In this document: positions 24,727 through 60,052 of the stretch, one piece after another | How positions within the stretch are numbered: position 1 is the stretch's first letter | Layout of the letters: each line of letters begins with the position of its first letter | Assembly: GCA_016219325.1 (NCBI GenBank) | Contig: JACRNH010000024.1 | Coordinates: 1,789-65,788, forward strand | Direction of reading: 5' to 3' | Length of the DNA stretch: 64,000 nucleotides | Source: Candidatus Collierbacteria bacterium | GTDB lineage: Bacteria; Patescibacteriota; Microgenomatia; UBA1400; JACPES01 | Made by a program: the position numbers and the translations under genes | Notes under the pieces: model-generated | Databases searched by the model: none | Seen by the model: the letters and a program-made list of their open reading frames with translations, nothing else | What the model was told of the DNA's origin: nothing

Positions 24727-26019
24727 ATGACCATCGGGGTAGTCGGAGTCGGTTTCGTCGGTTTAGTAACTGCGGCTGTTTTTTCCAAATTCGGAAATAC
24801 AGTTTGGGCGGTTAACAGAGATAAACAAAAATCAGATGACCTAAAAAATGGCAAGATTCCTTTTTTTGAACCCGGGTTGGAGGAATTGGTAAAAGAAAGC
24901 GTTGAGGCTGGCAGGCTTAAATTTACCACACAGTATTCAGACGCTATTTCAGATGCTGATGTAGTAATGATCGCCGTTGGCACTCCATCGGCTCCGGATG
25001 GAACTGCTGATTTATCCGCGGTTTTTGGGGCTGCTAAATCTTTGGCTCCGTATATCAAAACAGGGGCGATTGTTATTGTTAAGTCTACTGTTCCTCCCGG
25101 GACCAACGATAAAGTTAGGGAAATTATTGGAACCGTTACTAAAAAGCAGTTTTATACCGCTTCCGTTCCGGAATTTCTACGTGAAGGAACCGCGGTTGAC
25201 GATACTCTTCATCCCGACAGAATTCTGATCGGTTCCAATGAGCCGGCGGTGATTAAAAAACTTCTAGAATTGCACCGGCCCTTAAACGGTGAAACCGTGA
25301 TTATGCGCCCGGAATCTGCCCAGCTGACCAAGTACTCATCCAATGCTTATCTGGCAAACCGGATTGTGTTTATTAACCAAATTTCCGATCTGGCCGAAAA
25401 AACCGGAGCCGACGTCCAGGAAATTATCCGCGGAATGGGATTGGACAGCAGAATAGGATTGCATTATTGGTGGCCGGGATTGCAATATGGGGGTAGTTGC
25501 TTCCCTAAAGACGTTAAGGAATTGGCAGCTTATGCCAGGCGAGTTGGTGAGGGCGACGGATTATTTGAAAAAATAGATCAGCTTAATGAAAACCGGTTAT
25601 TAAAATTACTAACCAGATTTGAAAAAGCCGTTGGTGGGTGGAACGGTAAAACAGTTGCGGTTTTGGGATTGTCCTTTAAACCGAATACTGATGACATGCG
25701 GGAAGCGCCTTCAATGAAAGTCATTCCGTTGTTAACTGCCGCCGGAGCCGCAGTTTACGTCTATGATCCACAGGCATCAGGCCATGCTAAAAAAATATTG
25801 GGCGATAGTGTGGCAAAATATGCAGTTAATCCTTATGAAGCCGTAAAAGGAGCAACCGCGTTAATGATTTTGGTGGAATGGGATGAGTTTAAATCTTTGG
25901 ATTTGCCAAAGATAAAAAAGAATATGACCCCGGGCGCGGTTTTCATCGATACCAGAAATTTATACGATCCTCAAATAATCAAAGAAGCAGGATTGAAATA
26001 CGTTGGAATCGGGAGGTAA
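24727..26019 (+). CDS. ugd: UDP-glucose 6-dehydrogenase / nucleotide-sugar dehydrogenase
   Basis: GVVGVGFVGL (a Rossmann fold at the N-terminus) and the GGSCFPKDV active-site signature are present. The start was chosen at the internal ATG (MTIGVV...) downstream of the repeat. The ORF-track start is 24655. Confidence 0.8.
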   Translation: MTIGVVGVGFVGLVTAAVFSKFGNTVWAVNRDKQKSDDLKNGKIPFFEPGLEELVKESVEAGRLKFTTQYSDAISDADVVMIAVGTPSAPDGTADLSAVFGAAKSLAPYIKTGAIVIVKSTVPPGTNDKVREIIGTVTKKQFYTASVPEFLREGTAVDDTLHPDRILIGSNEPAVIKKLLELHRPLNGETVIMRPESAQLTKYSSNAYLANRIVFINQISDLAEKTGADVQEIIRGMGLDSRIGLHYWWPGLQYGGSCFPKDVKELAAYARRVGEGDGLFEKIDQLNENRLLKLLTRFEKAVGGWNGKTVAVLGLSFKPNTDDMREAPSMKVIPLLTAAGAAVYVYDPQASGHAKKILGDSVAKYAVNPYEAVKGATALMILVEWDEFKSLDLPKIKKNMTPGAVFIDTRNLYDPQIIKEAGLKYVGIGR

Positions 26020-26023
26020 TATC

Positions 26024-26103
26024 ATGTGAACATGGGAACATGAGAGCATTAATAAATTCATAAAAATGCTCCAATGTTCTAATGTTCCAATGCTCAAATG
26101 AAC
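26024..26103. repeat. Intercistronic imperfect palindrome (AATG-rich)
   Basis: gaacatgggaacatgagagcatt...aatgctccaatgttctaatgttccaatgctcaaatgaacatt lies between ugd and the next gene. Confidence 0.6.
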
Positions 26104-26982
26104 ATTCTAGTCACAGGCTCTTCCGGTTTTGCCGGCCGCCATTTAACCAAGTATCTTCAGGTCAAAGGCCATACTGCCTTGATTCCGGAAATTGATTTAT
26201 TAAATGCCACCGAAACGGAAGTAGTCATTTCAAAGCAAAAATTCGATGCGGTTGTCCATTTGGCGGCAATGGCTGAAGTCGGAACAAGCATGATTTCTCC
26301 GGCTAAAATTCTGCGGAATAATATTTTCGCCCAATTGAATTTATTGGAAGCCCTAAGACGGAGAAATTCTAAAGCTAGAGTTTTAATAATCTGTAGCGCC
26401 GACGAATATGGCGGAAGTCAGGAAGGGTCCATTGATGAAAATGCTCAGTTTATGCCGGCCAGTCCTTACGCTGTTTCCAAGATAGCCCAGGATTTTTTAG
26501 GTCTGCAATATTTTTTATCTTACGGATTAAACATTATCCGGTTAAGGCCGTTTAATCACATCGGCGAAGGTCAGCGGATTGGTTTCGTGGTCCCGGATTT
26601 TGTTAAGCAGATCGTGGAGATAGAGAAAAGCGGTCAATCAGGCGAAATAATAGTCGGCAATTTAGAGGCTGTCCGCGACTTTACCGATGTTCTTGATATG
26701 GTTTCGGCTTATGAATTGGCTTTGATAAAAGGCCAGGCAGGTGAAGTTTATAACGTTGGTTCCGGCAAGGGGGTTAAAATTTCTTATTTATTAAACCAGC
26801 TTGTCAAAATGTCTAAGGCTAAAATAAAAATTACGGTTGATGAATCAAGATTTCGTCCCGGGGAACCTTCGCAACTAATATGTAATTCGGAGAAATTTAT
26901 GAAAGCCACCGGCTGGAAACCTGAAATCCCTTTGGAAAAAACTTTAGAAAGAGTGCTAGAATGGTGGAGGAAGACTAGGTAA
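26098..26982 (+). CDS. NAD-dependent epimerase/dehydratase (SDR), likely GDP-4-keto-6-deoxy-D-mannose reductase (Rmd-like)
   Basis: VTGSSGFAGRHL is a Rossmann motif and YAVSK is the catalytic YxxxK. It sits adjacent to gmd. Confidence 0.55.
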   Translation: MNILVTGSSGFAGRHLTKYLQVKGHTALIPEIDLLNATETEVVISKQKFDAVVHLAAMAEVGTSMISPAKILRNNIFAQLNLLEALRRRNSKARVLIICSADEYGGSQEGSIDENAQFMPASPYAVSKIAQDFLGLQYFLSYGLNIIRLRPFNHIGEGQRIGFVVPDFVKQIVEIEKSGQSGEIIVGNLEAVRDFTDVLDMVSAYELALIKGQAGEVYNVGSGKGVKISYLLNQLVKMSKAKIKITVDESRFRPGEPSQLICNSEKFMKATGWKPEIPLEKTLERVLEWWRKTR

Positions 26983-27057
26983 GAAAATAATGAGTAAGAA
27001 GTAATGAGTAATGAATTTTTTGATCATTATTTCTTACTTTCTACTCATTACTCATTA
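26981..27057. repeat. Family-D 'GTAATGA' palindrome at a cistron junction
   Basis: aatgagtaagaagtaatgagtaatgaa ... tcattatttcttactttctactcattactcatta. It supplies the stop of the upstream gene and a spurious N-terminal extension of gmd. Confidence 0.8.
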
Positions 27058-28089
27058 ATGTCACGAAAAGCATTTATCACCGGCATTACCGGCCAGGACG
27101 GAAGTTATTTAGCGGAATTTCTTTTGGATAAGGGTTATGAAGTTTATGGCTTGATCCGCCGGACTTCAACGGTATCAACTGAACGAGTCTCTCATCTTTT
27201 GCATAAAATTTCAGTAGTCGACGGCGACTTAACCGATCAGCATTCGTTAACGCAGGCCATCCGCGACGTCCAGCCGGATGAAATTTATAATTTGGCGGCT
27301 CAATCTTTTGTTCCGACTTCGTTTAAGCAGCCGGTTTTAACCAGCGAAGCTACGGCTTTAGGGGTTACCAGAATGTTGGAGGCTATTCGCATCGCCAAGC
27401 CGGATACTAAATTTTATCAGGCGAGTTCTTCGGAAATGTTCGGTAAAGCGGTTGAAGTTCCGCAGTCGGAAACAACTCCATTTTATCCCCGTAGTCCTTA
27501 TGGTGTAGCCAAGGTCTACGGTCATTGGATCACGGTTAATTACCGGGAGTCATATAATCTTTTTGCCTGTTCAGGGATACTTTTTAATCATGAATCACCC
27601 CGCCGCGGTTTGACTTTTATTACCCGTAAAATCTCCATGAGCGTGGCTTGTCTGGCTACGGATTTGAAATGGGTGCCTCAAAATGAGATTGGCGAACCTT
27701 TAGTCGGACAGGATAAAAAAATCGCCATTGGCAATCTTGAATCTAAACGCGATTGGGGATTTGCCGGAGATTATGTTGAGGCGATGTGGTTGATGCTGCA
27801 GCAGTTAAAACCGGATGATTTTGTGATCGGAACAGGGGAAACCCATTCTGTCAGAGATTTTCTGGAGGCGGCTTTTGAGGTAGTTCAAATTAAAGATTGG
27901 GAAAAGCATATTAAAGTTGACAAGCGCTTTTACCGTCCGGCTGAAGTAGATCTATTGATTGCCGATCCTTCCAAGGCAAACCGGAAACTAAATTGGAAGC
28001 CAAAAACAAGTTTTAAGGATTTAGTAAAAATGATGGTGGAATATGATATAAAATTTGTGAAAAGGCAAATCGAAGGTAATCAAAAATGA
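27004..28089 (+). CDS. gmd: GDP-mannose 4,6-dehydratase
   Basis: [32 protein letters not shown] is near-canonical Gmd. The true start is probably the internal ATG at about 27058 (MSRKAF...). Confidence 0.9.
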
Positions 28090-29237
28090 CAGACCAATCG
28101 AAAAAACAAATTGTGGTCATGGTGATTCCCACCTACGATGAAAAGGGAAATATCGGACGGGCCATAGATGAGCTTCAAACAGTTTTCATGAAAGTCCCTG
28201 ACAATTACGAAATGCATATATTGGTTGTTGACGATTCTTCTCCTGACGGAACGGCAGATGAGGTCAGAGAAAAGATGAAAAAGCTGAAAAATGTTCATCT
28301 TTTAATAAATAAAAAAAAGATGGGATTGGGCGGAGCTTATTTATCCGGAATGAAGTATGCCGTTGAAAAATTAAACCCGGATATTTTTTTTGAATTTGAC
28401 GCCGACCTATCGCATGACCCTAAATTAGTCCCTCAATTTTTAGCCAAACTGGAAGAAGGATACGATCTGGTGCTGGGCAGCCGTTATATAAAGGGCGGAG
28501 CCATCCCTGATAATTGGGGACTTAAAAGAAAGTTCTACAGCGTTGTCGGGAATATGATTATCATGTTTGTTCTGACCGATTTCAGTATCCGCGACTGGAC
28601 CACCGGTTACCGAGCCATCCGCCGTTATGTTTACGATAAAGTCCATCCTTTGCTGGGAGAAGAGCGTTTTTTCGGATATACCTTTCAAATCGGTTTTCTG
28701 CATAAAGCCGTCAGGGCAGGATTTAAAGCCGGAGAAGTACCGTTAAAATTCGTAGACCGGACTCTGGGTCGCAGCAAACTCGGTGCCGAATACATCAAAA
28801 ACACCCTGATTTACATCTTTAAGGCCCGGTTTTTTGAACTCTTGCGATTCTTCAAGTTCGTCGCCGTCGGCTCTTTGGGGCTGGTAATCCAAACCGCCAT
28901 TTATTGGCTGTTAGGGTTCGGATTAAAATTATTTTCTCCGGCCATCGCCACCATTCTCGGCGGCCAAGTCGCCATTCTCTCCAATTTTATCCTGAACAAC
29001 GTCTGGACATTCGGCGACCGGAAAATTACTTCAACAACAAAATTGTTTCAGAAATTGATTGCTTTTTATACTACTTCAAATATTGCGGTTCTCCTGATTC
29101 AAGGCGGAATTATGAAAGCAGGCGAGATGTTGGTGGGAAAAGAGAATATTTTAATTCACGGATTTTATGTTGCTGCCTTAGTCTTAACACTCATCTTTAA
29201 TTTCACGGTTTACAATAAATATATTTGGAAGAAGTGA
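28086..29237 (+). CDS. Polyprenol-phosphate glycosyltransferase (GT2, DPM1-like) fused to a GtrA-family membrane domain
   Basis: [11 protein letters not shown]...[10 protein letters not shown] is the DPM-type GT2 region. The C-terminal 4-TM GtrA-like domain contains [10 protein letters not shown]. Confidence 0.8.
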
Positions 29238-29294
29238 AACTCCATACCGTCCACCAGTTAGCGAACTGGTACTGGGGTAAGCTATACTAGCTTC

Positions 29295-31469
29295 ATGTCT
29301 CCGATAAAAACCCTTTCTGTTTTCTTTCCTGCCTATAACGAAGAAGAAAATATAGTTAACACAGTCTCTCGAGCAATTAACGTTCTTAAGTCTTTAGATC
29401 TTTTCGATTATGAAGTTATTGTGGTTGATGACGGTTCTACCGATAACACCGCCGCCGCGGTGCAAAATATGATTGTTAAGAACTCAAAAATCCGGCTTAT
29501 CCGCCATAGCCGTAATCGAGGTTATGGCGCTGCCCTCAAAACTGGATTTTCTTCTGCCAAGTTCGACTGGATTGCCTTTACCGACTCCGACGGTCAGTTT
29601 GACTTCCGGGAAATAAATAAATTTCTGACCTATGTTCCTAATTACCAAGTCGTCGCCGGCTACCGGGAAAAACGCTCCGACAGTAAATTCCGCCGGATGA
29701 TGGCACGACTTCTGCGAATCTGGGACACCGTCTTATTCGGACTCAATCTGAAAGACGTTGACTGCGGCTTCAAGTTAATCAAAAAATCGGTGATTGATCA
29801 AGTTTTCCCCTTAGTCACCGAAAGCGCCATCACCGAAACCGAAATGATGGCCAAAATTTATCGCGCCGGCTTTCCTATTAAGCAAGTCGGCGTCGCCCAC
29901 CACTCTCGGACCAAAGGCGTCCAAACCGGCGGGAATTACCAGGTTATTTTCAAGGCGATTATTGAAAGCTTCAAACTATTTCTTCATCTTAATCCGTTTT
30001 TTCTCATCCTGACTGTTATTTTGCTAGTTGCGGCTTTCTTGCGCCTATATCGTATAAGGGACTATATTGTTTTTTTAGGCGATGAAGGCCGCGACGCTTT
30101 GGTTTGGCATGACATGGTAGTAAACGGGGAATTTACTTTTTTGGGGCCGACGGCCTCTGTTGGCGGATTTTACTTGGGGCCGATTTATTATTATTTCGCC
30201 CTGCCTTTCTATTTTATTTTTAGGGACCCGGTCGGGCCGGCAATTTTCGTGGCTTTATTGGGGGTAGCCACGGTTTGGCTGGTTTATTTCGTGACCAAAA
30301 GTTGGTTTGGAAAAACTTCGGGACTATTTGCTTCCGGAATATACGCGGTTTCCTCTTTGATCGTCCGTTACTCCAGGGCATCCTGGAATCCGAATCCGGT
30401 GCCATTTTTCTCTTTATTGGGCGTGTATCTGGCCGCAACCGGCGCTAAAGAAAATAAATGGTGGAAGTTGATCGGAGCCGGAATCTGTCTTGGAATTTTG
30501 TGGCAACTTCATTATCTGACTTTACTGATGACGCCCGTTCTTTTTGTAATAATCCTGATATATGGCAATATTGAAGGTCTGACCTTCAATCGCACGATAC
30601 GTCAATCATTTTTATTATTAATAGGTTGGGTTGTTGGTTTTTTTCCGTTTTTGGCATTTGAAATTTATCATAATTTTCCCAATACCAGAACTGTTTTGGA
30701 ATTCGTATCCCGCCCTAACGGTTCTGTTTTTAACTGGGAACTGTTGGGATTATTTAGGTCAGTTTTCCGTAATACTAACCGGCTGACTTTTACAATTTTT
30801 AGTTGGCAGAACGGTCTGGTGACTACATTTACGACTTTGGGGTGGGCGCTGGGAGGAAGCTTAATGATTATTTTTAATAAAAGTGTTCGGGGAAAATTTT
30901 TGTTGAGCCAATCTTTATTGTGGTGGTTTTGGCTGGGGATAACTATTTTTTCACTATATCAAGGAAGCATTTCTGATTATTATTTTGGGTTTCTGTTTCC
31001 GGTTCCGGCCATCTTGCTTGGGGCGGTGGCAGGCTACTTATTTGAAAAAAAATTGTTTGGGAAATTGTTAGTTGGATTTGCGGCCATATGGTTAATTTAT
31101 GATCAGTCCGGCAGACTGTTTTTACGGTTTGAACCCAATAGGCTGCTGCAGCAAACTGAAGCGGTTTCCCACCAGGTTATTACTTTATCCGGAAATGAAC
31201 CTTATAATTTTGCCCTGATAACTTCCGGAAACAGCGATCATGCCTATAGATATTTTTTGGAAAAGTTTAATAGGGGTCCGGTAAAACTCCAGGATTCAAT
31301 TACAGGTCAATTGATAGCGGTTTGCGAGAAACCGGTAGCAGATTGCAATCCATTGGGAAATCCGTTATGGGAAATAGCCGGTTTTGGCCGGGCTGAAGTA
31401 GTAGACTCAAAAATTGTTCCCCCGGGGATTACAATTTACAGGTTAACGCATTATTTCGGTCCGGATTAA
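29295..31469 (+). CDS. Bifunctional-looking protein: N-terminal DPM1-like GT2 + large C-terminal polytopic (GT-C-like) membrane domain
   Basis: VFFPAYNEEENI...VVDDGSTDNT at the N-terminus. The C-terminal domain shares the 'GP..G..GP.YYY' block with ORFs 33240, 36300 and 56797. Confidence 0.7.
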   Translation: MSPIKTLSVFFPAYNEEENIVNTVSRAINVLKSLDLFDYEVIVVDDGSTDNTAAAVQNMIVKNSKIRLIRHSRNRGYGAALKTGFSSAKFDWIAFTDSDGQFDFREINKFLTYVPNYQVVAGYREKRSDSKFRRMMARLLRIWDTVLFGLNLKDVDCGFKLIKKSVIDQVFPLVTESAITETEMMAKIYRAGFPIKQVGVAHHSRTKGVQTGGNYQVIFKAIIESFKLFLHLNPFFLILTVILLVAAFLRLYRIRDYIVFLGDEGRDALVWHDMVVNGEFTFLGPTASVGGFYLGPIYYYFALPFYFIFRDPVGPAIFVALLGVATVWLVYFVTKSWFGKTSGLFASGIYAVSSLIVRYSRASWNPNPVPFFSLLGVYLAATGAKENKWWKLIGAGICLGILWQLHYLTLLMTPVLFVIILIYGNIEGLTFNRTIRQSFLLLIGWVVGFFPFLAFEIYHNFPNTRTVLEFVSRPNGSVFNWELLGLFRSVFRNTNRLTFTIFSWQNGLVTTFTTLGWALGGSLMIIFNKSVRGKFLLSQSLLWWFWLGITIFSLYQGSISDYYFGFLFPVPAILLGAVAGYLFEKKLFGKLLVGFAAIWLIYDQSGRLFLRFEPNRLLQQTEAVSHQVITLSGNEPYNFALITSGNSDHAYRYFLEKFNRGPVKLQDSITGQLIAVCEKPVADCNPLGNPLWEIAGFGRAEVVDSKIVPPGITIYRLTHYFGPD

Positions 31470-31471
31470 TT

Positions 31472-32217
31472 ATGCAGCCATTTTTATCTATTGTCATTCC
31501 TTCTTTTAACGAATCTGAAAATATATCCAAAGGAGTATTGGACGAAGTGGAAAATTATTTATCGGACCAAAAATATGAGTGGGAAATAATTTTGGTGGAT
31601 GACGGCTCAACTGACGGAACTTTTGAAAATTTGCAAAGAATAGTTAAAGGAAAAAAGAATTGGAGATTAGTAAAAAGTCTTCATCAGGGTAAAGCCCAAA
31701 CGGTAAAAGCGGGAGTTATGGAAGCAGTGGGAAATCTTGTTTTGTTTACCGATTTTGATCAGGCTACACCATTATCGGAAGTGGAAAAATTGCTGCCGTT
31801 TATGCAAAAAGGTTATGACGTGGCGATAGGGTCGCGGGAAGTGAAGGGGAGCGAACGGTTAAAAGAGCCATGGTACCGGCATTTAATGGGAAAAGTATTT
31901 AACCGGGTGGTCCAAATGTTCGCTATCCGGGGGATATCAGACACCCAATGCGGTTTTAAGCTTTTTGCAAATCATGTTGCTAAAGAATTATTCAATAGTT
32001 TAGTTGTTTATTCTAAAGGATCAGAAACAACTGCTTTTACAGGCGCGTTTGATGTAGAGCTTCTGTATATTTCCCAGAAAAGAGGATATAGGATAGCCGA
32101 AGTTCCGGTTTCCTGGAAATATGTCACAACCGTCAGAGTAAATCCCATCCGCGATTCAGTCAAGATGTTTTTGGATGTTCTCCGTATTCGGATAACTGAT
32201 TTATTCGGAGGCTACAG

Positions 32218-32221
<4 letters not shown>
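31472..32221 (+). CDS. Polyprenol-phosphate glycosyltransferase (GT2, ArnC/DPM1-like)
   Basis: IVIPSFNESENI...LVDDGSTDGT. Confidence 0.8.
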
Positions 32222-33239
<1,018 letters not shown>

Positions 33240-33264
<25 letters not shown>

Positions 33265-51779: not shown

Positions 51780-52334
51780 ATGCAAACAGCACCTGTGGGC
51801 TTATTGTCGCAGCCGAAATTATTATCTTTTACCCAAGCCCGGTTTTATTTAGCATCAACCTTTTTAATTGCCGGGAACGTTTTATTGCCGATGATGTTAC
51901 ACCAATTCGGAAATGCCGGGCAGATTTTTTTACCATTGTATTTTTTTTCTTTGCTTGGTGGTTTGCTTTATGGCTGGAAAGTCGGTTTAACGGTTGGTTT
52001 GCTTAGCCCGTTAGTAAGTTTTTTATCTACCCATATGCCTCCAATGCCAATACTCAATTTTGTAATCCTTAAATCTGTGATACTCGGCATAGGGGCGGGA
52101 GCATTAAGCAGAATATTTTCTGGAAAAGGGTTATATTTATCAAGCTTTTTGGCATTAGGTCTAATGCAGATTACAGGAATAATCGCGATATTTTACTTAA
52201 CTAATAATTTTAAAATGGCTATTGCCGATTTGACAATCGGCTATCCTGGATTGATGCTTATGTTCTTGGCAGGGCCAATTATTGCAGGGAAATTAGGAGC
52301 TAATGGAAGTAAAATCTCTGACGGAAATAATTGA
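51780..52334 (+). CDS. Small polytopic membrane protein (ECF-transporter S-component-like)
   Basis: It is 184 aa with 5-6 TM segments. The call is weak. Confidence 0.3.
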   Translation: MQTAPVGLLSQPKLLSFTQARFYLASTFLIAGNVLLPMMLHQFGNAGQIFLPLYFFSLLGGLLYGWKVGLTVGLLSPLVSFLSTHMPPMPILNFVILKSVILGIGAGALSRIFSGKGLYLSSFLALGLMQITGIIAIFYLTNNFKMAIADLTIGYPGLMLMFLAGPIIAGKLGANGSKISDGNN

Positions 52335-52701
52335 TGAGCTTAAGAAGCTTAACCTCAAAGATAAATTTGATTTGATTGTTGGAATTAGCCGTGGCGGCGT
52401 TATTCCGGCGGTAATGATATCTTCATATCTAAAATTGCCTCTTGAAATTATAAAATTGAATTTCAGAGGCGATTTTCAAGATCCCAAGTACCCGGTTCCA
52501 AAACTGGTAGACCCGATTGATTTTAATTTCGAAGGTCAACGAGTGTTATTGGTTGATGACAGATCTAATTCCGGAGCTACTTTAATAACCGCCAAAAAAT
52601 TATTGGCAAAAGCAAAATCGGTTAAAACTCTGGTAATTAACGGCAAGGCCGATTACTCATTGTTTGAGGCAGACTGCTTCAAAATGCCGTGGGAGATTTA
52701 A
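52303..52701 (+). CDS. Phosphoribosyltransferase-domain protein
   Basis: 'VLLVDDRSNSGATL' is the PRPP-binding motif. Confidence 0.6.
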   Translation: MEVKSLTEIIDELKKLNLKDKFDLIVGISRGGVIPAVMISSYLKLPLEIIKLNFRGDFQDPKYPVPKLVDPIDFNFEGQRVLLVDDRSNSGATLITAKKLLAKAKSVKTLVINGKADYSLFEADCFKMPWEI

Positions 52702-53758
52702 GATATCTTTCTTTCCACATTATCCCATAATTTGTTTTCATCATTTTTTCTACGTGTTTTATTCCGACTAGTTTGTACCACAGGTCGTAATAAATTTTAG
52801 CTGCCCAGCGCAGTAACAGTAAAAATGGCGATTTGGCGTCGAACATCAGCCATTCCATCCATTTTCCGCGGTGCCTCAACCACATTTCTGTCGCCATGAC
52901 GATATTTGATTGATTGGCTTGCTCAAATTTGAATTGCGGTAATTTGTCTCCTACTATTTCAGCTTTCATTGACCCGACTCCTACTTGCTCCGCAAAAGTA
53001 ATATGCTTTACTGTTTTTGGATTTATCCCCATTACCTTTGAAGCTGCAGTATCCAGAGCTACCCGGTCGGGAGAGGCAAAGATATATCCGACTTTGCGCG
53101 GACTGCCGGTTTTCGGTCCCTTGCCTTCCATTCCGAATAATCCATCCATTAAGGCAAAAGTAATTTTTCCCTTGAAAAAATTATTAACATCGGCTATAGC
53201 CTGATGTAAAACCATGTGGAAATTATGCCGCAGATCGTGGATACACCCCCACTGATTTTTCAAAGCGCCTGTCATTGAGGAATATGAATGAGTTTTCAAA
53301 ACCGGCATGGTAATAATCGTATCGGCCTCCAAAAGCACCCGGCTGATTTTTAATTTATGCAGAACTAAGGCTTGGGCAAAAGGAACCAGCCGGAATTCGG
53401 TGTGGCTTAAATTAACAACGGTAGCCCCGTATTTTTTAGCCAATTCTTCAATCCCCTGAACTTTGAAAGAAATATTTGCCCGCATAATCGCGGCAGTATC
53501 CGTATCGGCAATGGTTATCTTTTCCGGACGATAAATTTTGGACGACTTGATAACTTTTAAAACTCCTTCAATCACCATTGGAGTAGTGGTACAGGATGGA
53601 TAAATTGTATCCCAGACAACGTTTACTTTGAGGACTAAATTTTTCCCCTTTACATATTTTTCCCAACGAGCCAATTCCATTGCTTTGCGGACGGCTTTAA
53701 AAACAACTTCAGGATTGGTGGATTTTTGATCGACTTTGATGCAGCTAACAATACTCAT
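52679..53758 (-). CDS. DUF362-family protein
   Basis: DUF362-like sequence. Start at the internal Met (MSIVSCIK). The upstream ORF-track extension runs through an (AACTAACAAA)n tandem repeat at 53760-53830. Confidence 0.45.
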   Translation of the reverse strand: MSIVSCIKVDQKSTNPEVVFKAVRKAMELARWEKYVKGKNLVLKVNVVWDTIYPSCTTTPMVIEGVLKVIKSSKIYRPEKITIADTDTAAIMRANISFKVQGIEELAKKYGATVVNLSHTEFRLVPFAQALVLHKLKISRVLLEADTIITMPVLKTHSYSSMTGALKNQWGCIHDLRHNFHMVLHQAIADVNNFFKGKITFALMDGLFGMEGKGPKTGSPRKVGYIFASPDRVALDTAASKVMGINPKTVKHITFAEQVGVGSMKAEIVGDKLPQFKFEQANQSNIVMATEMWLRHRGKWMEWLMFDAKSPFLLLLRWAAKIYYDLWYKLVGIKHVEKMMKTNYGIMWKERYLKSPTAF

Positions 53759-53851
53759 AATATAAACTAACAAACTTACAAAATTACAAACTAACAAAAA
53801 AAACTAACAAACAGAAAAACTAAAAAACTCTAATCCTGGTTCAGTTTATTT

Positions 53852-54613
53852 TCACGGTTTATTTGTCCGTTTGTCGTTTTTATATTCAGGATGGCTTGCC
53901 AGTTTTTTCATTCTTTCGGTAATCATAATTCCCAAGTATTTCGGAACGGATTGGAAAATTGTCAATTTTGATTGACCTTCGCCGCGGCGTTCATATCGAA
54001 TAGGGATTTCGCCAACCTTGTATCCGTGAAGATGGAATTTCACCGGAATTTCGGTATGAATCTCAAACCAACCGCTTTGTAAGTTCAATTTTCGGAGAGC
54101 AGATGCTCTCATAATTCTGTAGCCGCTGCTGGCGTCGTGGAGGGGATATCCGGTGATTAATTTGGCTGCGAAAGCGCACGATTGAGAAAGAAGTAAACGA
54201 AAAGCCGGGCCGTCCATTGACCCGCCTGACACAAACCGGCTGCCGATTACCATATCGAATCCTTTATTCGCGGCAGCGATAAAATCAGGAATTTCTTCCG
54301 GCCGGTGCGAGAGATCGCTGTCCAGAGTAATAATCCATTTTCCGCGGGCAACTGCGAATCCGGCTCTTTCAGCGTTTCCCGGACCGTTTTTGGAAAAGCG
54401 GTGGATAACCCTGATTTGCGGAAATTTATCCGAGAGCTTATCCAATAATTTCCCGGTGTTATCCGAGCTGACATCATCTATGGCAATCACTTCATAAGAA
54501 AGCCGGTTGGCGGTAGCCATTTTTACAATTCTGGCTACAAACGGAAGGATGTTTCCCTCTTCATTATGGGCCGGAATAACAATTGAATATTCAGGATTTT
54601 TGCTATTTGTCAT
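53852..54613 (-). CDS. Polyprenol-phosphate glycosyltransferase (GT2, DPM1/ArnC-like)
   Basis: YSIVIPAHNEEGNI...AIDDVSSDNT. Confidence 0.8.
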   Translation of the reverse strand: MTNSKNPEYSIVIPAHNEEGNILPFVARIVKMATANRLSYEVIAIDDVSSDNTGKLLDKLSDKFPQIRVIHRFSKNGPGNAERAGFAVARGKWIITLDSDLSHRPEEIPDFIAAANKGFDMVIGSRFVSGGSMDGPAFRLLLSQSCAFAAKLITGYPLHDASSGYRIMRASALRKLNLQSGWFEIHTEIPVKFHLHGYKVGEIPIRYERRGEGQSKLTIFQSVPKYLGIMITERMKKLASHPEYKNDKRTNKP

Positions 54614-54631
54614 AATAAAACATAGTCTATC

Positions 54632-55906
54632 ATGAAAACCCGCTTAATCACAGTTATAAGTTTAGTTTTACCGTTTATTTTATGGGGAAAATTAATCCCG
54701 TTTTCTTTGGCGCAGGATGATTATTATCTGATTTCTCAAGCAGCTTTTAATTCCGTGCGCCAACAGGTTTTGTCTTCGTTACCGAATACGAATTCAATAT
54801 TTTTTCGCCCTTTAGGAATGCAGGCGTATTTTTATCTGGCAGTTAGGTTGTTTTGGATAACCGCTTGGAAATATCGGATTGTTGCCGTATTGATTCATGG
54901 AATTAATTCCATTTTAGTCTATAAGATAAGCCAAAAAATAATTAAATCCGGAGCTATATTTGTCTGGTTAATGTATTTGGCAGCCCCCTGGCAATTTGCG
55001 GCAATTGGCTGGATTGTAAATATTTCATATTTATCCGGCGCAATGTTTGCATTTTTATCTATTCTATCGGCTCTTGAAAAGAGGCTTTATCTTCCGATTT
55101 TATTCTTTACTATGGGAATTTTGACAAATGAATTGGTTGCGGTAGTTCCGCTGCTGATGATATTGCTGTGCATTCCCCGGAAAAGACGTTTAATAATCCC
55201 GATATTTATGATTTTGGGATTATACGGACTTGTTAGATTAAAATTTCCCTCCGCTTCAACCGGCGATTATGGATTTATGATCGGATCTAATGTTATTCAA
55301 AATATCCGTTGGCTATTGACATGGGCATTGGGTTGGCCGGAAACATATAAAGACCAATTTATTTCATTTTTCAATATTAATAAGTCGTTTCTATCAACTT
55401 TCCCCGGAGAAACTTTTATTTTTGCCGTAACGTCAATTGTGATTTTGGAAGTTGTCTTAATAACAGCACAGAACATTAGGCGGATATTGTTTGGAATATC
55501 TTGGTTTGCGGTTGCCTTGTCTCCGGTGATTTTTTTCACCAGTCACATTTATCCGCATTATGCTGTTATCGCCGTTGTTGGCCTATATTTGATTATTGCC
55601 GATGCTCTGTCTCAATCTTCACGGAAGTTGACGGCAGTGTTTATTATTTTGTGGATTATGCAATTTGTAGCTGGATTGAAAATAAATTTAGTTACTCATT
55701 GGTGGCCAAGACATGCTTTAGAAGCCGGTAATCTGATTTCAAAAATAACGAACAATCATCCATTTCTGCCCGGGGATAAAAGATTATTTCTTGAAACCTG
55801 TAACTCGGTACAGACTAAATTAGTTCTTTCAGGGGATAATGCCGTAAAACTTATATATAATGATCCAGATGCTAAACTCAATCTCAATTGTAATCCCCAG
55901 TTATAA
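54632..55906 (+). CDS. Polytopic membrane protein (GT-C-like)
   Basis: Multi-TM protein in the glycosylation locus. Confidence 0.45.
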   Translation: MKTRLITVISLVLPFILWGKLIPFSLAQDDYYLISQAAFNSVRQQVLSSLPNTNSIFFRPLGMQAYFYLAVRLFWITAWKYRIVAVLIHGINSILVYKISQKIIKSGAIFVWLMYLAAPWQFAAIGWIVNISYLSGAMFAFLSILSALEKRLYLPILFFTMGILTNELVAVVPLLMILLCIPRKRRLIIPIFMILGLYGLVRLKFPSASTGDYGFMIGSNVIQNIRWLLTWALGWPETYKDQFISFFNINKSFLSTFPGETFIFAVTSIVILEVVLITAQNIRRILFGISWFAVALSPVIFFTSHIYPHYAVIAVVGLYLIIADALSQSSRKLTAVFIILWIMQFVAGLKINLVTHWWPRHALEAGNLISKITNNHPFLPGDKRLFLETCNSVQTKLVLSGDNAVKLIYNDPDAKLNLNCNPQL

Positions 55907-56831
55907 CGGTAAATTACTGCTGGAAAAAAATTTGCCGGCGGTTATATATTCCTTGAGGCGTCTGGAAAGGCCTGGCCCTGCGAAGCAGGGCCAGGCCTTT
56001 ATTGATTCCGAAATAATAGTTGTGGACGATGCTTCTTCGGATAGCACAGAAAAATGGTTAACGGCAGAATATCCGGAAGTAAAGTTAATAAAAAATAAAA
56101 ACAATTTGCGTTTTGCTCGTTCATGTAACCGCGGGGTAAATGCTGCCAAGGGAGAGATTGTGGTTTTATTAAATAATGATGTCAGTCCCAGTCCTGACTT
56201 TTTGTCTTATGTGATCCCGCATTTTGGAGACGAAAAAGTATTCGCGGTCGGCTTCGGAGAAATAAACTCGGTTGACGGAAAAATTATTCACGGAGGAAGA
56301 GGTGTATCCAAATTTGAGCGGGGACTGGTTATGCATTGGCGCCCAATAGACCAAAAAAGTCCGGTGGTAACATGGCTTTCCGGCGGCAGTATGGCTTTCA
56401 ACAAAAGTATTTGGGAAAGGCTGGGGGGATTTGATGAGTTATTTAGACCGGCTTATGAGGAAGACCGGGATTTATGTTGGCAGGCTTTAAAATCAGGCTA
56501 TAAAATAGTTTTTGAGCAGAAAGCTGTTGTTGAACATTTTCACGAATCCACTAATTTAAAATTATTCGGAAAGACAAAAATATCTATGTACTCGTTAAAA
56601 AATCAGCTTCTTTTTGTTTGGAAAAATATATCTTCTCCAAAATACTTGTTGAGCCATTTAATTTGGTTTCCGTATCATTTAATTTTAACTACAATAAGGA
56701 CTAAGGGAATATTTTTGGCAGCATTTTGCTGGGCTTTGACGCAGTTGCCGGAGACTTTGATATCCAGAAAAAGCGCTTCAAAACTTTGGAGAATAGATGA
56801 TGAAGAAATTTTTAAATTGGCTGAAAAATAA
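55860..56831 (+). CDS. Family-2 glycosyltransferase
   Basis: ISIVIPSYNGK...VVDDASSDST and LLNNDV are present. It contains a family-B insertion (ERPGPAKQGQAF). Confidence 0.75.
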   Translation: MIQMLNSISIVIPSYNGKLLLEKNLPAVIYSLRRLERPGPAKQGQAFIDSEIIVVDDASSDSTEKWLTAEYPEVKLIKNKNNLRFARSCNRGVNAAKGEIVVLLNNDVSPSPDFLSYVIPHFGDEKVFAVGFGEINSVDGKIIHGGRGVSKFERGLVMHWRPIDQKSPVVTWLSGGSMAFNKSIWERLGGFDELFRPAYEEDRDLCWQALKSGYKIVFEQKAVVEHFHESTNLKLFGKTKISMYSLKNQLLFVWKNISSPKYLLSHLIWFPYHLILTTIRTKGIFLAAFCWALTQLPETLISRKSASKLWRIDDEEIFKLAEK

Positions 56832-58380
56832 TTGGCTGTTTCTGCTGGTTGTAATAATCGGCGGGCTCTTAAGATTTTACCGTTTGCAGGATTTAGCAAC
56901 ATTCGGTGGGGATCAGGGGGTTGATTATCAAAATGTTGCCAGAATGATTGCGGAAAGAAAGTTGTCGCTGTTGGGACCAATAACTCACGTAGGAATATTT
57001 TTAGGACCGCTATATTATTATTTATTAATTCCTTTTTTCCTGATCTTCAATTTTGATCCGATTGCCGCTCCGGTGATGTTTGCGCTTTTCGGAACTGCCA
57101 CCGTGGGATTGGTTTATATACTGGCTATAAAGTTTTTTTCTTTCATCCATCATCCATCATCCCGCCGGGCAGAGTCTCTGGGCGGCGCCATCATCCATCA
57201 TTACCAAGAATTCGCTTTTCTAACCGCTCTTTTCTATGCCGTTTCTCCCGTCATTCTTGAATCCAGCCGGGCGCCGTCTCAACCGCACCTGATTCCTTTT
57301 TTTGCAACTTTGCTATTAATTTCAATCTTCCGCATTGTTGAGAAAACAGATAAATGGTGGGATTGGGTGGGGCTTGGGATTGCATCGGGAAGTTTGATTC
57401 AACTTCACTTTTTAACATTTCCGATATATATATTTTTCCTGATCATTTTGTCTTTGGTTGTTGCCGCCAAACGGATACAAATTTCATTGTTTCCTGTTTC
57501 CTGTTTCTTGTTTTCTGTTTTGCTTTTATTTCCCTGGCTCCTTTTTGAACTTCGCCATAACTTCTTTATCACCAATCAGGTTATTGCTTATCTCCGTTCA
57601 GGAGAGGTTTCGTTTTCTCCGGCAAATTATTTTGAAAGAGTTCTTGATTTGATTTGGTTTTCGTTTGACCGCTTAATCGGCCAGGGGAATCAGGCTATAA
57701 CTATTATTGCAATTATTTTAAGTTTGACTGGTATTATTTCTAATAAGGTTACACCTTGTCGTACGCTAAGGTGTAACCTTTTGAGCCCTACAGGAATAAT
57801 CGTGTTTTATTTCTTGATAAATATCTTAGGAATCGCTCTTTACAAATTCCCTCTTTCAAATCATTATATATCAGCTTTATACACGGTAATTATTTTATTT
57901 TTTTCGCTAGGAATTGTTAAAATTCTGCCGAAATCATTGTCTTTTATCGTATTTATTATGTTTATAACCTTTATTTCTTCCCAAAATAATTTAGACTCAA
58001 ATCACGGGTATACCATGCCGGAGTGGGTTAACGCCAGTTTGATTGAAAAGGCCGCAAATATAATCTCATCAGATATCAAAAATAGGCCAGGAACTTATAA
58101 CGTAGTAAACACATTGGACGGCGATACCCGGGCTAATCCTTACCGCTATGTCCTAACTTACAGAAATAAAGTTCCGCCGTTGGGAGTCGAAAAATATTCA
58201 GAAGCGGACTATTTATATATTGTTTCCAGAGGTGCCAGAAATGAGCTTTTGGAAGATAAACGTTGGGAATTATTAAGTTTTCCGGTTGGGAATATTGAAT
58301 CCTTGGGAACGATCGGAGGAGATATAAAATTGTACAGGTGGGATAATGGTAGAGCGGACAGAAAGGATTTAATGAAATGA
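56797..58380 (+). CDS. Polytopic membrane protein, GT-C-like (paralog family 2)
   Basis: FGGDQGVDYQNVARM...GPITHVGIFLGPLYYYLL. It contains a family-C-like insertion and repeat-derived 'VSCFLFSVLLLF'. Confidence 0.5.
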   Translation: MMKKFLNWLKNNWLFLLVVIIGGLLRFYRLQDLATFGGDQGVDYQNVARMIAERKLSLLGPITHVGIFLGPLYYYLLIPFFLIFNFDPIAAPVMFALFGTATVGLVYILAIKFFSFIHHPSSRRAESLGGAIIHHYQEFAFLTALFYAVSPVILESSRAPSQPHLIPFFATLLLISIFRIVEKTDKWWDWVGLGIASGSLIQLHFLTFPIYIFFLIILSLVVAAKRIQISLFPVSCFLFSVLLLFPWLLFELRHNFFITNQVIAYLRSGEVSFSPANYFERVLDLIWFSFDRLIGQGNQAITIIAIILSLTGIISNKVTPCRTLRCNLLSPTGIIVFYFLINILGIALYKFPLSNHYISALYTVIILFFSLGIVKILPKSLSFIVFIMFITFISSQNNLDSNHGYTMPEWVNASLIEKAANIISSDIKNRPGTYNVVNTLDGDTRANPYRYVLTYRNKVPPLGVEKYSEADYLYIVSRGARNELLEDKRWELLSFPVGNIESLGTIGGDIKLYRWDNGRADRKDLMK

Positions 58381-59216
58381 AAATAGCAACGGTCATTTTA
58401 GTTTACGGAAAAAGTCAAAATTTAGAAGAATGTTTGGCCAGTTTAAAAGTATCCAACAGTTCAGGGATAGATAATAAAATTATCGTTGTTGACAATTCAA
58501 AAGATAATGCCGGATATTCAGGAGGCAATAATAAAGGTATCCTTCAGGCTTTAGCAGGAGGGGCTGAGGCAGTGTTACTCCTGAATGATGACACCAAAGT
58601 TGATAAATCGGTCATGGTAGAGATGCTTGAAGCACTGAAAGATAAGCAAGTCGGAATGGTGTCCCCTAAAATTTATTTTTATCCCGGATTTGAATATCAT
58701 AAGGATAGATATAAGCCAAAAGACAAAGGAAAAGTTATCTGGTATGCCGGCGGGTTGATTGATTGGAATAATTGTCTGGGAATTCACCGTGGCGTTGATG
58801 AGGTTGACATAGGGCAGTATCAGAAAAAAGAAGAAACAGAGTTTGCCACAGGTTGCGCGGTTTTAGTAAAAAAAGAAGTTTTTGAAAAAATAGGCTTGTA
58901 TGACGAAAGATACTTTTTATATTTGGAAGATTTGGATCTTTCTGTAAGGGTAAAGAGGGCTGGATTTAAAATTATTTATCAGCCAAAAGCGGTAGTCTGG
59001 CATAAAAACGCCCAATCAAGCGGATCCGGGTCGGGATTGCACGATTATTTTTTTACCAGGAATAGGTTGTTGTTTGGACTTGAGAACGCGTCTTTCAAAA
59101 CAAAATTTGCCCTAGTCAGGGAAAGTATTGGAATTTTTTTGACAGGTAATAATTGGAAAAGAAGAGGTGTATTGGATTTCTATTTGAGAAAACTCGGTCG
59201 CGGTAGTTGGATTTGA
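58377..59216 (+). CDS. Family-2 glycosyltransferase (rhamnosyltransferase-like)
   Basis: VILVYGKSQNLEECLASL...LNDDTKV. Confidence 0.7.
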   Translation: MKIATVILVYGKSQNLEECLASLKVSNSSGIDNKIIVVDNSKDNAGYSGGNNKGILQALAGGAEAVLLLNDDTKVDKSVMVEMLEALKDKQVGMVSPKIYFYPGFEYHKDRYKPKDKGKVIWYAGGLIDWNNCLGIHRGVDEVDIGQYQKKEETEFATGCAVLVKKEVFEKIGLYDERYFLYLEDLDLSVRVKRAGFKIIYQPKAVVWHKNAQSSGSGSGLHDYFFTRNRLLFGLENASFKTKFALVRESIGIFLTGNNWKRRGVLDFYLRKLGRGSWI

Positions 59217-59229
59217 TACATGGTCTCAT

Positions 59230-59265
59230 TGTCATTCCTGCGAAAGCAGGAATCTATATAAATAT
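59230..59265. repeat. Family-A hairpin repeat
   Basis: ttgtcattccTGCGAAAGCAggaatctatataaata. Confidence 0.8.
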
Positions 59266-59284
59266 TATAATTTTGCTCACTACT

Positions 59285-60052
59285 ATGAAATTATCCGCAA
59301 TTGTAATCACTAAAAATGCTGCCGACAAAATCGAGGATTGTCTTGAATCTTTAAAATTCGCGGATGAAGTGATTGTGGTGGATTCAGGATCGACGGATGC
59401 AACAAAAGATATTGCGGTGAAAGCAGGAGCTAAATTTTTTAAAGTCGATAATATTGGTTACTCCCACAGCCGGAATGTCGGAGCCCAAAAAGCCAAAGGC
59501 GAATGGTTGCTTTATGTTGACGCGGACGAAAGAGTGACTGAAAATCTCCAAAAAGAAATCCTCCCTAATCTCCCCAAATCCCCTAATTTCCAAAGTTTCA
59601 AAATCTACCGCAAAAATATCATTCTCGGTCAATGGCTCCGCCACGGCGGCTGGTGGCCTGATCCGGTCCACAGGTTAATAAAAAAATCTGCTCTTAGAGA
59701 ATGGCAAGGCGAGTTGCACGAATATCCGGTGGTTGAGGGCGAAGCCGGGACTATAACTGAACCAATAGTCCATTATTCAAAGAATTCAATTTCAGAAATG
59801 GTTAAGAATTCCCGCCAATTTGCGCCGATTGAGGCTGAATTGAAATTGAAAGCCGGACATCCGCCGGTAAAAATTTATCATTTTATTTTAGCTATGTGGG
59901 GCGAATTTTGGACAAGAGGGATTTTAAAAGCAGGTTGGTTGGACGGAGTGGTCGGCATAATCGAAATTTTTTACCAAATGTTCCATCAATTTATGGTCTA
60001 TTCGATCCTTTGGCAAATGCAGCAGACAAAAAGAGTAAAGAGTAATGAGTAA
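59285..60052 (+). CDS. Family-2 glycosyltransferase (LPS-core-type)
   Basis: LSAIVITKNAADKI...VVDSGSTDAT. Start at the internal ATG after the repeat. The ORF-track start is 59207. It carries the family-E 'LPNLPKSPNF' insertion. Confidence 0.75.
   Translation: MKLSAIVITKNAADKIEDCLESLKFADEVIVVDSGSTDATKDIAVKAGAKFFKVDNIGYSHSRNVGAQKAKGEWLLYVDADERVTENLQKEILPNLPKSPNFQSFKIYRKNIILGQWLRHGGWWPDPVHRLIKKSALREWQGELHEYPVVEGEAGTITEPIVHYSKNSISEMVKNSRQFAPIEAELKLKAGHPPVKIYHFILAMWGEFWTRGILKAGWLDGVVGIIEIFYQMFHQFMVYSILWQMQQTKRVKSNE

Follow-up and report, generated by a model that had tools for sequence, protein, structure and literature searches.

Gene content of the locus

We analyzed a 64,000-nucleotide stretch of contig JACRNH010000024.1 (assembly GCA_016219325.1, positions 1,789 to 65,788 of the forward strand) from a Candidatus Collierbacteria bacterium, hereafter called the window, and within it a glycosylation locus of about 35 kb at positions 24727-60052. 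An earlier note, made from the letters of the DNA, had described this region as a glycosylation super-locus. The open reading frames (ORFs) of the window were mapped and all of them were scanned with Pfam and NCBIfam, and the ORFs and domains found at these coordinates bear the description out. The coding fraction over 24.7-60.05 kb is 97.6%, and the content comprises Ugd, Gmd, Rmd, a CDP-tyvelose-2-epimerase-like short-chain dehydrogenase/reductase (SDR), nine glycosyltransferase family 2 (GT2) domains, one MOP/Wzx-type flippase and 13 polytopic glycosyltransferases of the GT-C type, whose coding sequence makes up 55% of the 35-kb locus. Genes are named below by the first coordinate of their ORF. 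The segment is chromosomal, as rpoB, an unsplit rpoC, genes for methionyl- and arginyl-tRNA synthetases (MetRS and ArgRS), two tRNAs and an Nramp gene lie in the same window. The closest GTDB species representative found was the Collierbacteria metagenome-assembled genome (MAG) JACPES010000003.1. The host belongs to the Microgenomates within the candidate phyla radiation (CPR) and is probably monoderm; the envelope of CPR bacteria is thought to be Gram-positive-like and to have no outer membrane (PMC6744442).

The nucleotide-sugar genes expected from the earlier note (ugd, gmd, an Rmd-like reductase and an extra SDR epimerase) were all recovered. The UDP-glucose 6-dehydrogenase Ugd (24655..26019, +) contains three UDPG_MGDP_dh domains and scored 407 bits with TIGR03026 (cut-off 190); its probable start is the ATG at 24727, residue 25 of the ORF that begins at 24655. 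Rmd, a GDP-6-deoxy-D-lyxo-4-hexulose reductase of the GDP-D-rhamnose pathway (26098..26982, +), matched the structures 2PK3 (1.6e-63) and 6X3B (1.7e-53) over its full length. The closest solved Rmd, 2PK3, is from Aneurinibacillus thermoaerophilus, where it serves an S-layer glycan. Gmd, the GDP-mannose 4,6-dehydratase (27004..28089, +; probable start 27058), scored 443 bits with TIGR01472, above the cut-off of 415. The SDR (50236..51267, +) could be specified further as a CDP-tyvelose-2-epimerase-like enzyme of the nucleoside diphosphate (NDP)-hexose C2 epimerase type, with matches to 9RL0 (4.5e-109) and 1ORR (5.9e-92) and only 1e-35 for the next enzyme class. Given these supply genes, D-rhamnose, a uronic acid and hexoses are plausible as the loaded sugars.

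Predicted donor synthases and other GT2 enzymes

The nine GT2 domains, the number counted previously, are those of 28086, the N-terminus of 29295, 31472, 42485, 49251, 53852 (reverse strand), 55860, 58377 and 59207. Five of them (28086, 29295 N-terminus, 31472, 42485 and 53852) had been called DPM1/ArnC-type synthases. A joint profile of these five (A8) gave its best structural match to the Pyrococcus dolichyl-phosphate mannose synthase (DPMS; 5MLZ, 2e-44), followed by three ArnC structures (2e-36 to 3e-33) and GtrB (5e-31), each over positions 3-230, the full catalytic domain. Other GT2 structures were matched over the N-terminal nucleotide-binding half only (positions 1-120). D37, D38, D93 and D95 are invariant, and the DxD motif is present. 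Judged by these profile comparisons, the predicted sub-classification of the five enzymes as DPMS/ArnC/GtrB-type is sound. Specific equivalog models (ArnC, PgfS, AglJ, PpgS and Dol-P-hexose transferase) gave the five proteins 45-123 bits against NCBIfam cut-offs of 325-529. PgfS was the top NCBIfam match for three GT2s, and the AglJ and Agl23 models were among the matches, all far below the equivalog cut-offs.

The five synthases differ in architecture. In 28086 (28086..29237, +), a DPMS-type polyprenyl-phosphate glycosyltransferase, the GT2 domain is followed by a C-terminal domain of four transmembrane (TM) segments (Pfam Glycos_transf_2 and GtrA_DPMS_TM). The GtrA-type domain that the earlier note had read as a GtrA fusion is therefore present, but the arrangement, GT2 plus GtrA/DPMS 4-TM, is that of the Pyrococcus enzyme. 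The gene 29295 (29295..31469, +) encodes a fusion of a predicted cytoplasmic DPMS/ArnC-type GT2 (aa 1-225) with a PMT_2-type GT-C (aa ~226-724), the latter carrying GDE after its first TM segment and a GPIYYY motif. The other three are soluble enzymes, of the DPMS/ArnC type in 31472 (31472..32221, +) and 53852 (53852..54613, -) and of the DPMS/AglJ type in 42485 (42485..43183, +). The four other GT2 enzymes that had been noted were likewise found and are generic: 49251 (49251..50198, +), 55860 of the Glyco_tranf_2_3 type (55860..56831, +), and the two genes at 58377-59216 and 59207-60052 (+). A tenth GT2 of the window, at 13845-15347, adjoins MetRS 9 kb upstream of the locus; this 500-aa protein of the Glyco_trans_2_3 type may be a membrane-embedded processive synthase.

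GT-C-type membrane proteins

Where twelve or more GT-C proteins had been claimed, our analysis identified 13 inside the coordinates and a 14th at 61487-63520. At least five families are represented: PMT_2/ArnT-like, MptA_B, GT87, YfhO-like and PTPS_related. The Pfam gathering score was passed by seven of the 13 (29295 C-terminal part, 34822, 37604, 39038, 43211, 44576 and 46230, with PMT_2, PMT, GT87 or PTPS_related). Every candidate has an Asp or Glu 5-15 residues past the first TM segment (TM1), in the motifs GDE, TDE, WDE, SDD, HDG, HDD, QDD, GDQ and QVD. A crude Kyte-Doolittle hydropathy scan, which undercounts, gave about 5-11 TM segments per candidate, and by the positive-inside rule only, the acidic loop after TM1 is predicted to face outward. 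The earlier note had considered that these proteins might lack GT-C hallmarks on profile search, for example as transporters; seven of the 13 do show them at the gathering score, and the other six are tied to GT-C families less directly.

Several members could be assigned by direct profile matches. The protein 37604 (37604..39118, +) is ArnT/PMT-like, with WDE after TM1 and matches to PMT_2 (70.7 bits), PMT (58.7 bits) and the ArnT structure 5EZM (2.3e-14). The protein 34822 (34822..36303, +) belongs to the PMT_2 family (40.4 bits) and has TDE at the same place, and 39038 (39038..40324, -) is a PimE-like GT87 enzyme (Pfam GT87 113 bits; PimE 9DM5 2.4e-5). Three PTPS_related (PF10131) paralogues at 43211-44623 (+), 44576-46264 (-) and 46230-47792 (+) carry an (F/I)PVRW motif. 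A further group, with the motif GPxxYYY, includes 33240 (33240..34814, +), which scored a sub-threshold 18.4 bits with PMT_2 and matched the C-terminal part of 29295 (1e-10) and 56797 (4e-12) by BLASTP; 36300 (36300..37583, +), a PMT_2-like GT-C that also scored below the PMT_2 threshold and is the most divergent between genomes (39% identity to the JACPES01 locus, L002); and 56797 (56797..58380, +; GPLYYY), which matched the C-terminal part of 29295 at 2.9e-30 by BLASTP and has an orthologue with a weak PMT_2 match. Both paralogue groups proposed earlier, three 'FPVRW' proteins and four 'GP..YYY' proteins, are real. The exact motif occurs in only two members of each, and one further member of the former carries IPVRW. 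Both YfhO-like genes that had been proposed also exist, but only 40191 (40191..42488, +; probable start 40281) lies inside the coordinates, its paralogue being 61487 (7e-58). The latter has a weak YfhO match, and the orthologue of 40191 matches YfhO.

Two proteins needed remote-homology or structural evidence. Pfam at E<=10 gave nothing for 32218, 54632, 40191 or 56797, and the Pfam copy scanned evidently lacks or misses PF26314, the MptA_B family to which 32218 (32218..33264, +) was assigned from precomputed matches. This small (348 aa) protein has an invariant D29 after TM1, conserved in 90 relatives (alignment A7). The AlphaFold2 (AF2) model is all-helical with about 11 membrane helices, and by this predicted fold 32218 looks like a GT-C transferase. 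No hhalign signal was obtained between its family and the GT87 protein. Its C-terminus, YRYYPCVAIFSC, is invariant in 28 of 28 close homologues (alignment A6). The divergent PMT_2-like protein 54632 (54632..55906, +) has no Pfam match of its own and an invariant Q28-D29-D30 after TM1. It has 12-13 close homologues and 1946 remote relatives; in an alignment of 64 of the latter (A5) D29/D30 are invariant and ten sequences match PMT_2. Comparison by hhalign linked the 54632 family to the PMT_2-like family at 90.8%, with the acidic motifs aligned, and likewise linked YfhO-like to PTPS_related (94.5%) and PTPS_related to PMT_2-like proteins (95%). Sequence searches of the PDB with profiles of the 54632, GPxxYYY, PTPS and YfhO-like families returned nothing meaningful.

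Flippase and terminal enzymes

The single Wzx flippase described earlier was identified as a MOP/Wzx-type protein at 47770..49239 (+), with a Polysacc_synt_3 score of 179.5 bits. No profile match to Wzy, O-antigen ligase/WaaL, EpsG, LCP, Bac_transf, Glycos_transf_4 or an initiating phosphoglycosyltransferase was detected among window ORFs of at least 80-100 aa, in agreement with the earlier remark that no polymerase or ligase is obvious. In Corynebacterineae, glycan chains are elongated by GT-Cs of the MptA/B, GT87 and Emb types, so the missing polymerase is no argument for decoration over polymer.

Conservation in related genomes

The locus was compared with related genomes, as the earlier note had suggested, and proved colinear in two of them, with a core that extends more widely in Microgenomates. 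Colinearity with the Collierbacteria MAG JACPES01 spans 29.9-51.3 kb of the window, and the reverse-strand PTPS paralogue (44576-46264) is missing there. Colinearity with GCA_020053545.1 runs from a methyltransferase and BacA, through ugd, to the second YfhO-like gene and a GT1 gene. Identity to the latter genome is 82-93% for the GT2s, the SDR and Wzx, and 70-90% for the GT-Cs; the GT-C genes diverge faster than the GT2 and cytoplasmic enzymes.

The fusion gene 29295 showed a different pattern. In GCA_020053545.1 its GT-C part is 90% identical and is preceded by a stand-alone GT2 gene whose product is only 23% identical. The nucleotide match between the two genomes is lost precisely across window positions 29234-30018 (L005 6254-7134 in GCA_020053545.1), with flanking genes 90-93% identical, and the replacement is a clean swap of the donor-synthase module. 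For the fused form itself, over 100 homologues that match along the full length come from Daviesbacteria, Beckwithbacteria and other Microgenomates. A shared core order was found in the complete 820-kb Daviesbacteria genome CP066688 and the Beckwithbacteria MAG PEZT01: nucleotide-sugar genes, a DPMS-type GT2, the GT2::PMT_2 fusion, a GT2, then PMT/PMT_2 genes, (MptA_B), PTPS_related and a Wzx-like gene, the last two being linked in these lineages as well. The nucleotide-sugar genes at the core are RmlA/B/C-type in Daviesbacteria and Ugd plus SDRs in Beckwithbacteria; nucleotide-sugar and donor modules are exchangeable. The Collierbacteria locus appears to be an enlarged form of an old Microgenomates envelope-glycan locus with a conserved core, and because the core order is kept across Microgenomates classes it looks like core envelope biosynthesis and not an accessory system.

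Heptanucleotide tracts

The strangest feature of the region is its heptamer arrays. We counted 16 period-7 tandem tracts compared with 1-3 each for periods 5, 6, 8, 9 and 10, so the density noted earlier is real. The tracts are concentrated in the polytopic genes and occur also in ArgRS and at intergenic spots, and each has only 4-5 copies. Most belong to one unit family, TTACT-type on the coding strand. Coding arrays lie at 32242-32275, 32420-32455, 33700-33729, 34167-34205, 47444-47485, 49079-49116, 57486-57520, 62246-62282 and 62927-62960, and 8 of 12 coding tracts fall within predicted TM helices. The simplest explanation for their concentration in these genes is that T-rich heptamers yield hydrophobic residues whichever frame is read, and that TM helices and loops under weak constraint tolerate them. 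We found no description of heptanucleotide repeats in CPR bacteria in the literature searched. Since such repeats recall STRR, a cyanobacterial source of the DNA was weighed and dismissed: rpoC is not split, and both protein names and gene order indicate Collierbacteria.

The AGTAATG-type reverse complement, which supplies stop and start codons, occurs between genes only, and opposed arrays form palindromes at 26979-27060, 37569-37625 and 43180-43275. These three junction elements, together with those at 60030-60062 and 17825-17876, consist of (AGTAATG/GTAAGAA)n followed by an opposed (TCATTAC/TTCTTAC)n. Stop codons (TAA/TGA) and ATG start codons come from the forward arm, N-terminal hydrophobic residues of the next ORF are often encoded by the reverse arm, and the opposed arrays could form hairpins. 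Tandem repeats of 8-10 nt were also observed in coding and intergenic DNA (35814-35870, 40739-40768, 47196-47236, 51699-51751 and 53764-53829); a 10-mer array in 34822 coincides with a region of 18-19-aa indels between orthologues.

At orthologous sites (L002, L005 and L009-L022) arrays of the same length and position were found, often with a unit that differs in all copies (TACTTTC versus ACTTGTT; ACCAACA versus TCATAAA versus CCATCAA; CTTTACT versus GTTTACT). The tracts evolve in concert and are a real and dynamic feature at the DNA level. Tract lengths in TM segments are identical between orthologues, and loop arrays differ between genomes by about 18-21 nt (7 aa), that is by three units, in frame. 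In 32218, TM1 and TM2, which tracts encode, have a hypervariable sequence of fixed length between invariant flanks. Metagenomes were also searched with anchors placed on either side of TM2 and TM3 in the 32218 family, a design in which a ±7-nt change would be detectable, and 17 true homologues were recovered. No ±7-nt length class was seen among the 17; 16 were in frame, with lengths of 174, 180 or 186 nt, and in nine of these 16 there were heptamer-periodic tracts, 30 nt or longer and built from various units. The lone frameshift, in the distant homologue L021 (Ga0182022_1330402, ~400-440), was considered as heptamer slippage and rejected, since it sits at a T6 homopolymer after TM2; an assembly error or a pseudogene could explain it. 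No frameshifted gene was seen in three genomes, and two Logan contigs from run SRR12113407, a run possibly not independent of the MAG's own sample, were identical through five tracts.

The suggestion of a variable system drawn from the tracts therefore lacks support as far as switching goes, given the conserved tract lengths, the missing ±7-nt allele and the position of most coding tracts in TM helices. Variation is present and is of other kinds: faster divergence of the GT-Cs, the GT2 module swap, gain or loss of a paralogue, and in-frame steps of the loop arrays.

Borders of the locus and neighboring genes

The proposed extent of about 35 kb holds for 24727-60052, but the locus reaches past both ends, to 35-40 kb. 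Upstream, the undecaprenyl-diphosphate phosphatase BacA/UppP, an enzyme of lipid-carrier recycling (23818..24591, -; Pfam BacA 6.2e-70), is the divergent neighbor of ugd, an adjacency also found in GCA_020053545.1. Downstream, 60074..63520 (+) continues with a RhuM-family protein, a 156-aa membrane protein and the second YfhO-like GT-C (61487-63520); a 235-aa ORF and then the GT1 gene follow past the window end. The RhuM-family protein (Virulence_RhuM, 7.6e-97) and the 156-aa protein occupy 60074-61494, between the GT2 genes and the YfhO-like gene, and stand in the same place in a related genome (L003 15415-16802).

At 51.3-53.8 kb three genes without an evident role in it (51780..53797) encode an ECF-S-like protein, a small phosphoribosyltransferase (PRTase) and, on the reverse strand, a DUF362 protein; these and the RhuM gene are kept in place in GCA_020053545.1. 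The gene for the ECF-S-like membrane protein overlaps that for the 132-aa PRTase, and the two may be a nucleobase-salvage pair unrelated to glycosylation. A role of the PRTase (52303) in a polyprenyl-phosphoribose route was rejected, as it is a soluble, type-I purine-PRTase-like protein and not UbiA-type. Elsewhere in the window, the ORF at 37-2034, upstream of rpoB, combines a Type ISP restriction-enzyme C-terminal specificity domain with an Eco57I-type methylase domain, and a 221-aa cohesin-domain protein directly after rpoC (9849-10514) may be a surface protein.

Proposed function and alternatives

Taken together, the gene content, the family and fold assignments, the acidic first-loop motifs, the adjoining lipid-carrier phosphatase and the synteny make it likely that this is the main envelope-glycan locus of the bacterium, working by a multi-donor, multi-transferase route of polyprenyl-phosphate monosaccharides and GT-C enzymes. 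The inventory of five DPMS/ArnC/GtrB-type GT2s and 13-14 GT-Cs fits the earlier proposal that lipid-linked monosaccharide donors are consumed by many GT-Cs. For the sugars loaded, their flipping and their acceptors we infer the following. The cytoplasm would supply UDP-GlcA (Ugd), GDP-D-rhamnose (Gmd and Rmd) and a C2-epimerised NDP-hexose (the TyvE-like SDR), and each of the five donor synthases would put one sugar on polyprenyl phosphate, with the neighboring BacA recycling the lipid carrier. The polyprenyl-phosphate sugars might be flipped by the MOP/Wzx-like protein, by the GtrA/DPMS TM domain or by the GT-C modules themselves. From these donors the 13-14 GT-Cs would then lengthen or decorate glycoconjugates of the envelope, and the four conventional GT2s, together with the GT1 beyond the window, would probably make a lipid-linked primer or oligosaccharide at the cytoplasmic face. 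In a characterised three-component system a MOP-family flippase serves a polyprenyl-phosphate-pentose donor (PMC11127046), so that a single MOP/Wzx-type protein need not imply an undecaprenyl-diphosphate-linked oligosaccharide; by analogy, the locus may work like a Gtr system with another flippase, for example the MOP protein.

Several observations weigh against this polyprenyl-phosphate route. The pathway is incomplete as seen, because the window showed no acceptor, no LCP ligase and no initiating enzyme, and the donor sugars are not assignable, because all proteins but Gmd fall below the NCBIfam equivalog cut-offs. A stand-alone small GtrA flippase was not found in the window scan: PF04138 occurs only as the C-terminal domain of 28086, and the 156-aa membrane ORF at 61024 gave no GtrA match. 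Three of the five donor synthases (31472, 42485 and 53852) have no predicted TM segment, in which they resemble human DPM1 and actinobacterial Ppm1, both dependent on partners. Among the GT-Cs, the calls for 33240, 36300 and 56797 stand on sub-threshold PMT_2 matches or no Pfam match plus BLASTP paralogy, that for 40191 on paralogy with 61487 and the YfhO match of its orthologue with no direct match, and the AF2 model of 54632 was unusable (pLDDT 40, with 12 close homologues in the alignment). The literature searched held nothing relevant on glycosylation or envelope glycans in CPR, Collierbacteria or Microgenomates.

The question of acceptors is bound up with the main alternative. For the polyprenyl-phosphate route, a lipoglycan or a wall glycopolymer built up step by step, in the manner of lipomannan and lipoarabinomannan (LM/LAM), is a tentative choice that falls short of even chances. 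We lean to it slightly, possibly with protein O-glycosylation beside it, because elongating (MptA_B/GT87) and decorating (ArnT/PMT/YfhO) enzyme types are combined and because the core is kept in very small genomes. The alternative holds that the system serves mainly protein O-glycosylation, with GT-C paralogues working in parallel to place monosaccharides on surface proteins such as S-layer proteins, pilins or Ser/Thr-rich disordered regions. Parallel protein O-glycosylation is known from Pmt in actinobacteria and from PgfM1/PgtC2 in streptococci; PMT/PMT_2 and YfhO-type enzymes are present here, PgfS heads the NCBIfam matches of three GT2s, and the closest solved Rmd serves an S-layer glycan. 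PgfS together with a YfhO-type GT-C acts on proteins, and in Firmicutes proteins are glycosylated by YfhO-family enzymes (PMC11092751). However, characterised MptA_B and GT87 members act on lipoglycans, thirteen parallel protein transferases would be unprecedented, the locus encodes no candidate acceptor protein, and the conserved Wzx-PTPS_related linkage with four cytoplasmic GT2s suggests an oligosaccharide or polymer intermediate. We regard surface proteins as the main acceptor as rather unlikely; the remaining probability falls to polymer and proteins both.

A conventional Wzx/Wzy repeat-unit polysaccharide, capsule- or O-antigen-like, in which one of the polytopic proteins is a Wzy or ligase, would account for the Wzx-like MOP flippase and the four generic GT2s, and Wzy proteins are notoriously divergent. 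Such a pathway is nonetheless very improbable: no Wzy_C, O-antigen-polymerase, EpsG, Bac_transf or Glycos_transf_4 match was obtained although unassigned proteins were scanned to E<=10, the formerly unassigned 32218 (by fold) and 54632 (by its PMT_2 link) resolve as GT-C types, and five polyprenyl-phosphate-sugar synthases would be superfluous. A classical O-antigen cluster with Wzy/WaaL, of which the scanned window ORFs showed neither, is unlikely also because the host belongs to the CPR, thought to be without an outer membrane (PMC6744442). The earlier preference for decoration over a single O-antigen pathway thus stands as regards the O-antigen but loses its argument from the missing polymerase. 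Less credible still, and hardly to be expected, is a phase-variable contingency system in which heptamer slippage in GT-C genes switches transferases on and off. The excess of period-7 tracts (16 versus 1-3) and their concentration in polytopic genes would favor it, and concerted evolution with loop-array differences of ~18-21 nt implies slippage over evolutionary time. The low copy number, the fixed lengths in TM segments, intact genes in three genomes, Logan contigs identical through five tracts, the score of 0/17 for ±7 nt with its single frameshift at a T6 run, the further tracts in ArgRS and intergenic DNA, and the TM-helix location of 8/12 coding tracts with T-rich heptamers hydrophobic in every frame all speak against switching. 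A more novel pair of linked ideas, which we think improbable, is that the GT2::GT-C fusion is a single-polypeptide machine that makes, flips and transfers its sugar, and that the heptamer arrays are a generator of TM and loop sequences.

Relation to known systems and significance

All components belong to known families and follow the logic of known systems. In three-component systems a GT2 makes a polyprenyl-phosphate monosaccharide in the cytoplasm, and a GT-C with an outward acidic loop transfers the sugar outside. With its DPMS/ArnC/GtrB-type GT2s and ArnT-, YfhO- and PMT_2-type GT-Cs, the locus resembles GtrA/GtrB/GtrV (Shigella, Salmonella), CsbB/GtcA/YfhO (Bacillus, Listeria), GacI/GacL and ArnC/ArnT. 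Those systems have one synthase and one GT-C; the present locus has five of the former and 13-14 of the latter, lacks a separate GtrA, has one synthase joined to a GT-C and stands in no lipopolysaccharide or known teichoic acid context. Analogues of the GtrB/CsbB, GtcA and YfhO kind have been described (PMC5836110, PMC7389260). The streptococcal Pgf and GtrB-PgtC2 systems (PMC11092751) share a PgfS-like GT2, an epimerase, YfhO-type GT-Cs and, probably, a monoderm envelope with the locus, which is far larger, has more diverse families and contains no adhesin or acceptor genes.

A further likeness is to the assembly of LM, LAM and phosphatidylinositol mannosides and protein mannosylation in Corynebacterineae (Ppm1, PimE, MptA/MptB/MptC and Pmt), given the MptA_B-family, GT87 and PMT-like members found here. 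In that group polyprenyl-phosphate-sugar synthases feed many GT-Cs, which work one after another on a lipoglycan and also on proteins. The mycobacterial genes are dispersed, whereas those of the Collierbacteria bacterium form one contiguous locus. Here the enzymes are only distantly similar in sequence to their actinobacterial counterparts (PimE 2.4e-5), PTPS_related and YfhO-like members come in addition, the nucleotide-sugar module points to rhamnose and uronate and not only to mannose, and no PimA/PimB-type steps were seen in the window. Archaeal dolichyl-phosphate glycosylation provides another comparison: 28086 has the same GT2 plus 4-TM GtrA/DPMS architecture as Pyrococcus DPMS (5MLZ), the best profile match at 2e-44, and AglJ and Agl23 of the AglJ/AglD/Agl23 system were among the NCBIfam models matched. 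The locus differs in that scores were far below equivalog cut-offs, the host is bacterial and no AglB/STT3 oligosaccharyltransferase is present.

New here are the scale, with a single locus of an ultra-small-genome lineage holding five donor synthases and 13-14 GT-Cs, and the conserved GT2::GT-C fusion with its natural module swap; the literature searched held nothing relevant on such fusions. The coupling of donor and transferase could be probed with the fusion and its domain-swapped, unfused variant. Were the joint idea above true, the GT-C module of the fusion would pass a polyprenyl-phosphate sugar across the membrane, giving a handle on the long-unidentified flippase step for polyprenyl- and dolichyl-phosphate sugars, and concerted heptanucleotide arrays would diversify the surface glycans of episymbiont-like bacteria through outward-facing glycosyltransferases.

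A large part of bacterial diversity falls within the CPR/Patescibacteria, whose surfaces are believed to mediate host attachment. Their envelope glycobiology appears essentially unexplored in the literature searched. The five donor synthases, the 13-14 transferases and the core order provide a parts list for glycomics, lectin staining and heterologous reconstitution. With 55% of the locus given to GT-C sequence and a relative that keeps the same core in an 820-kb genome, extracytoplasmic glycan assembly is probably a major and conserved investment of the Microgenomates.

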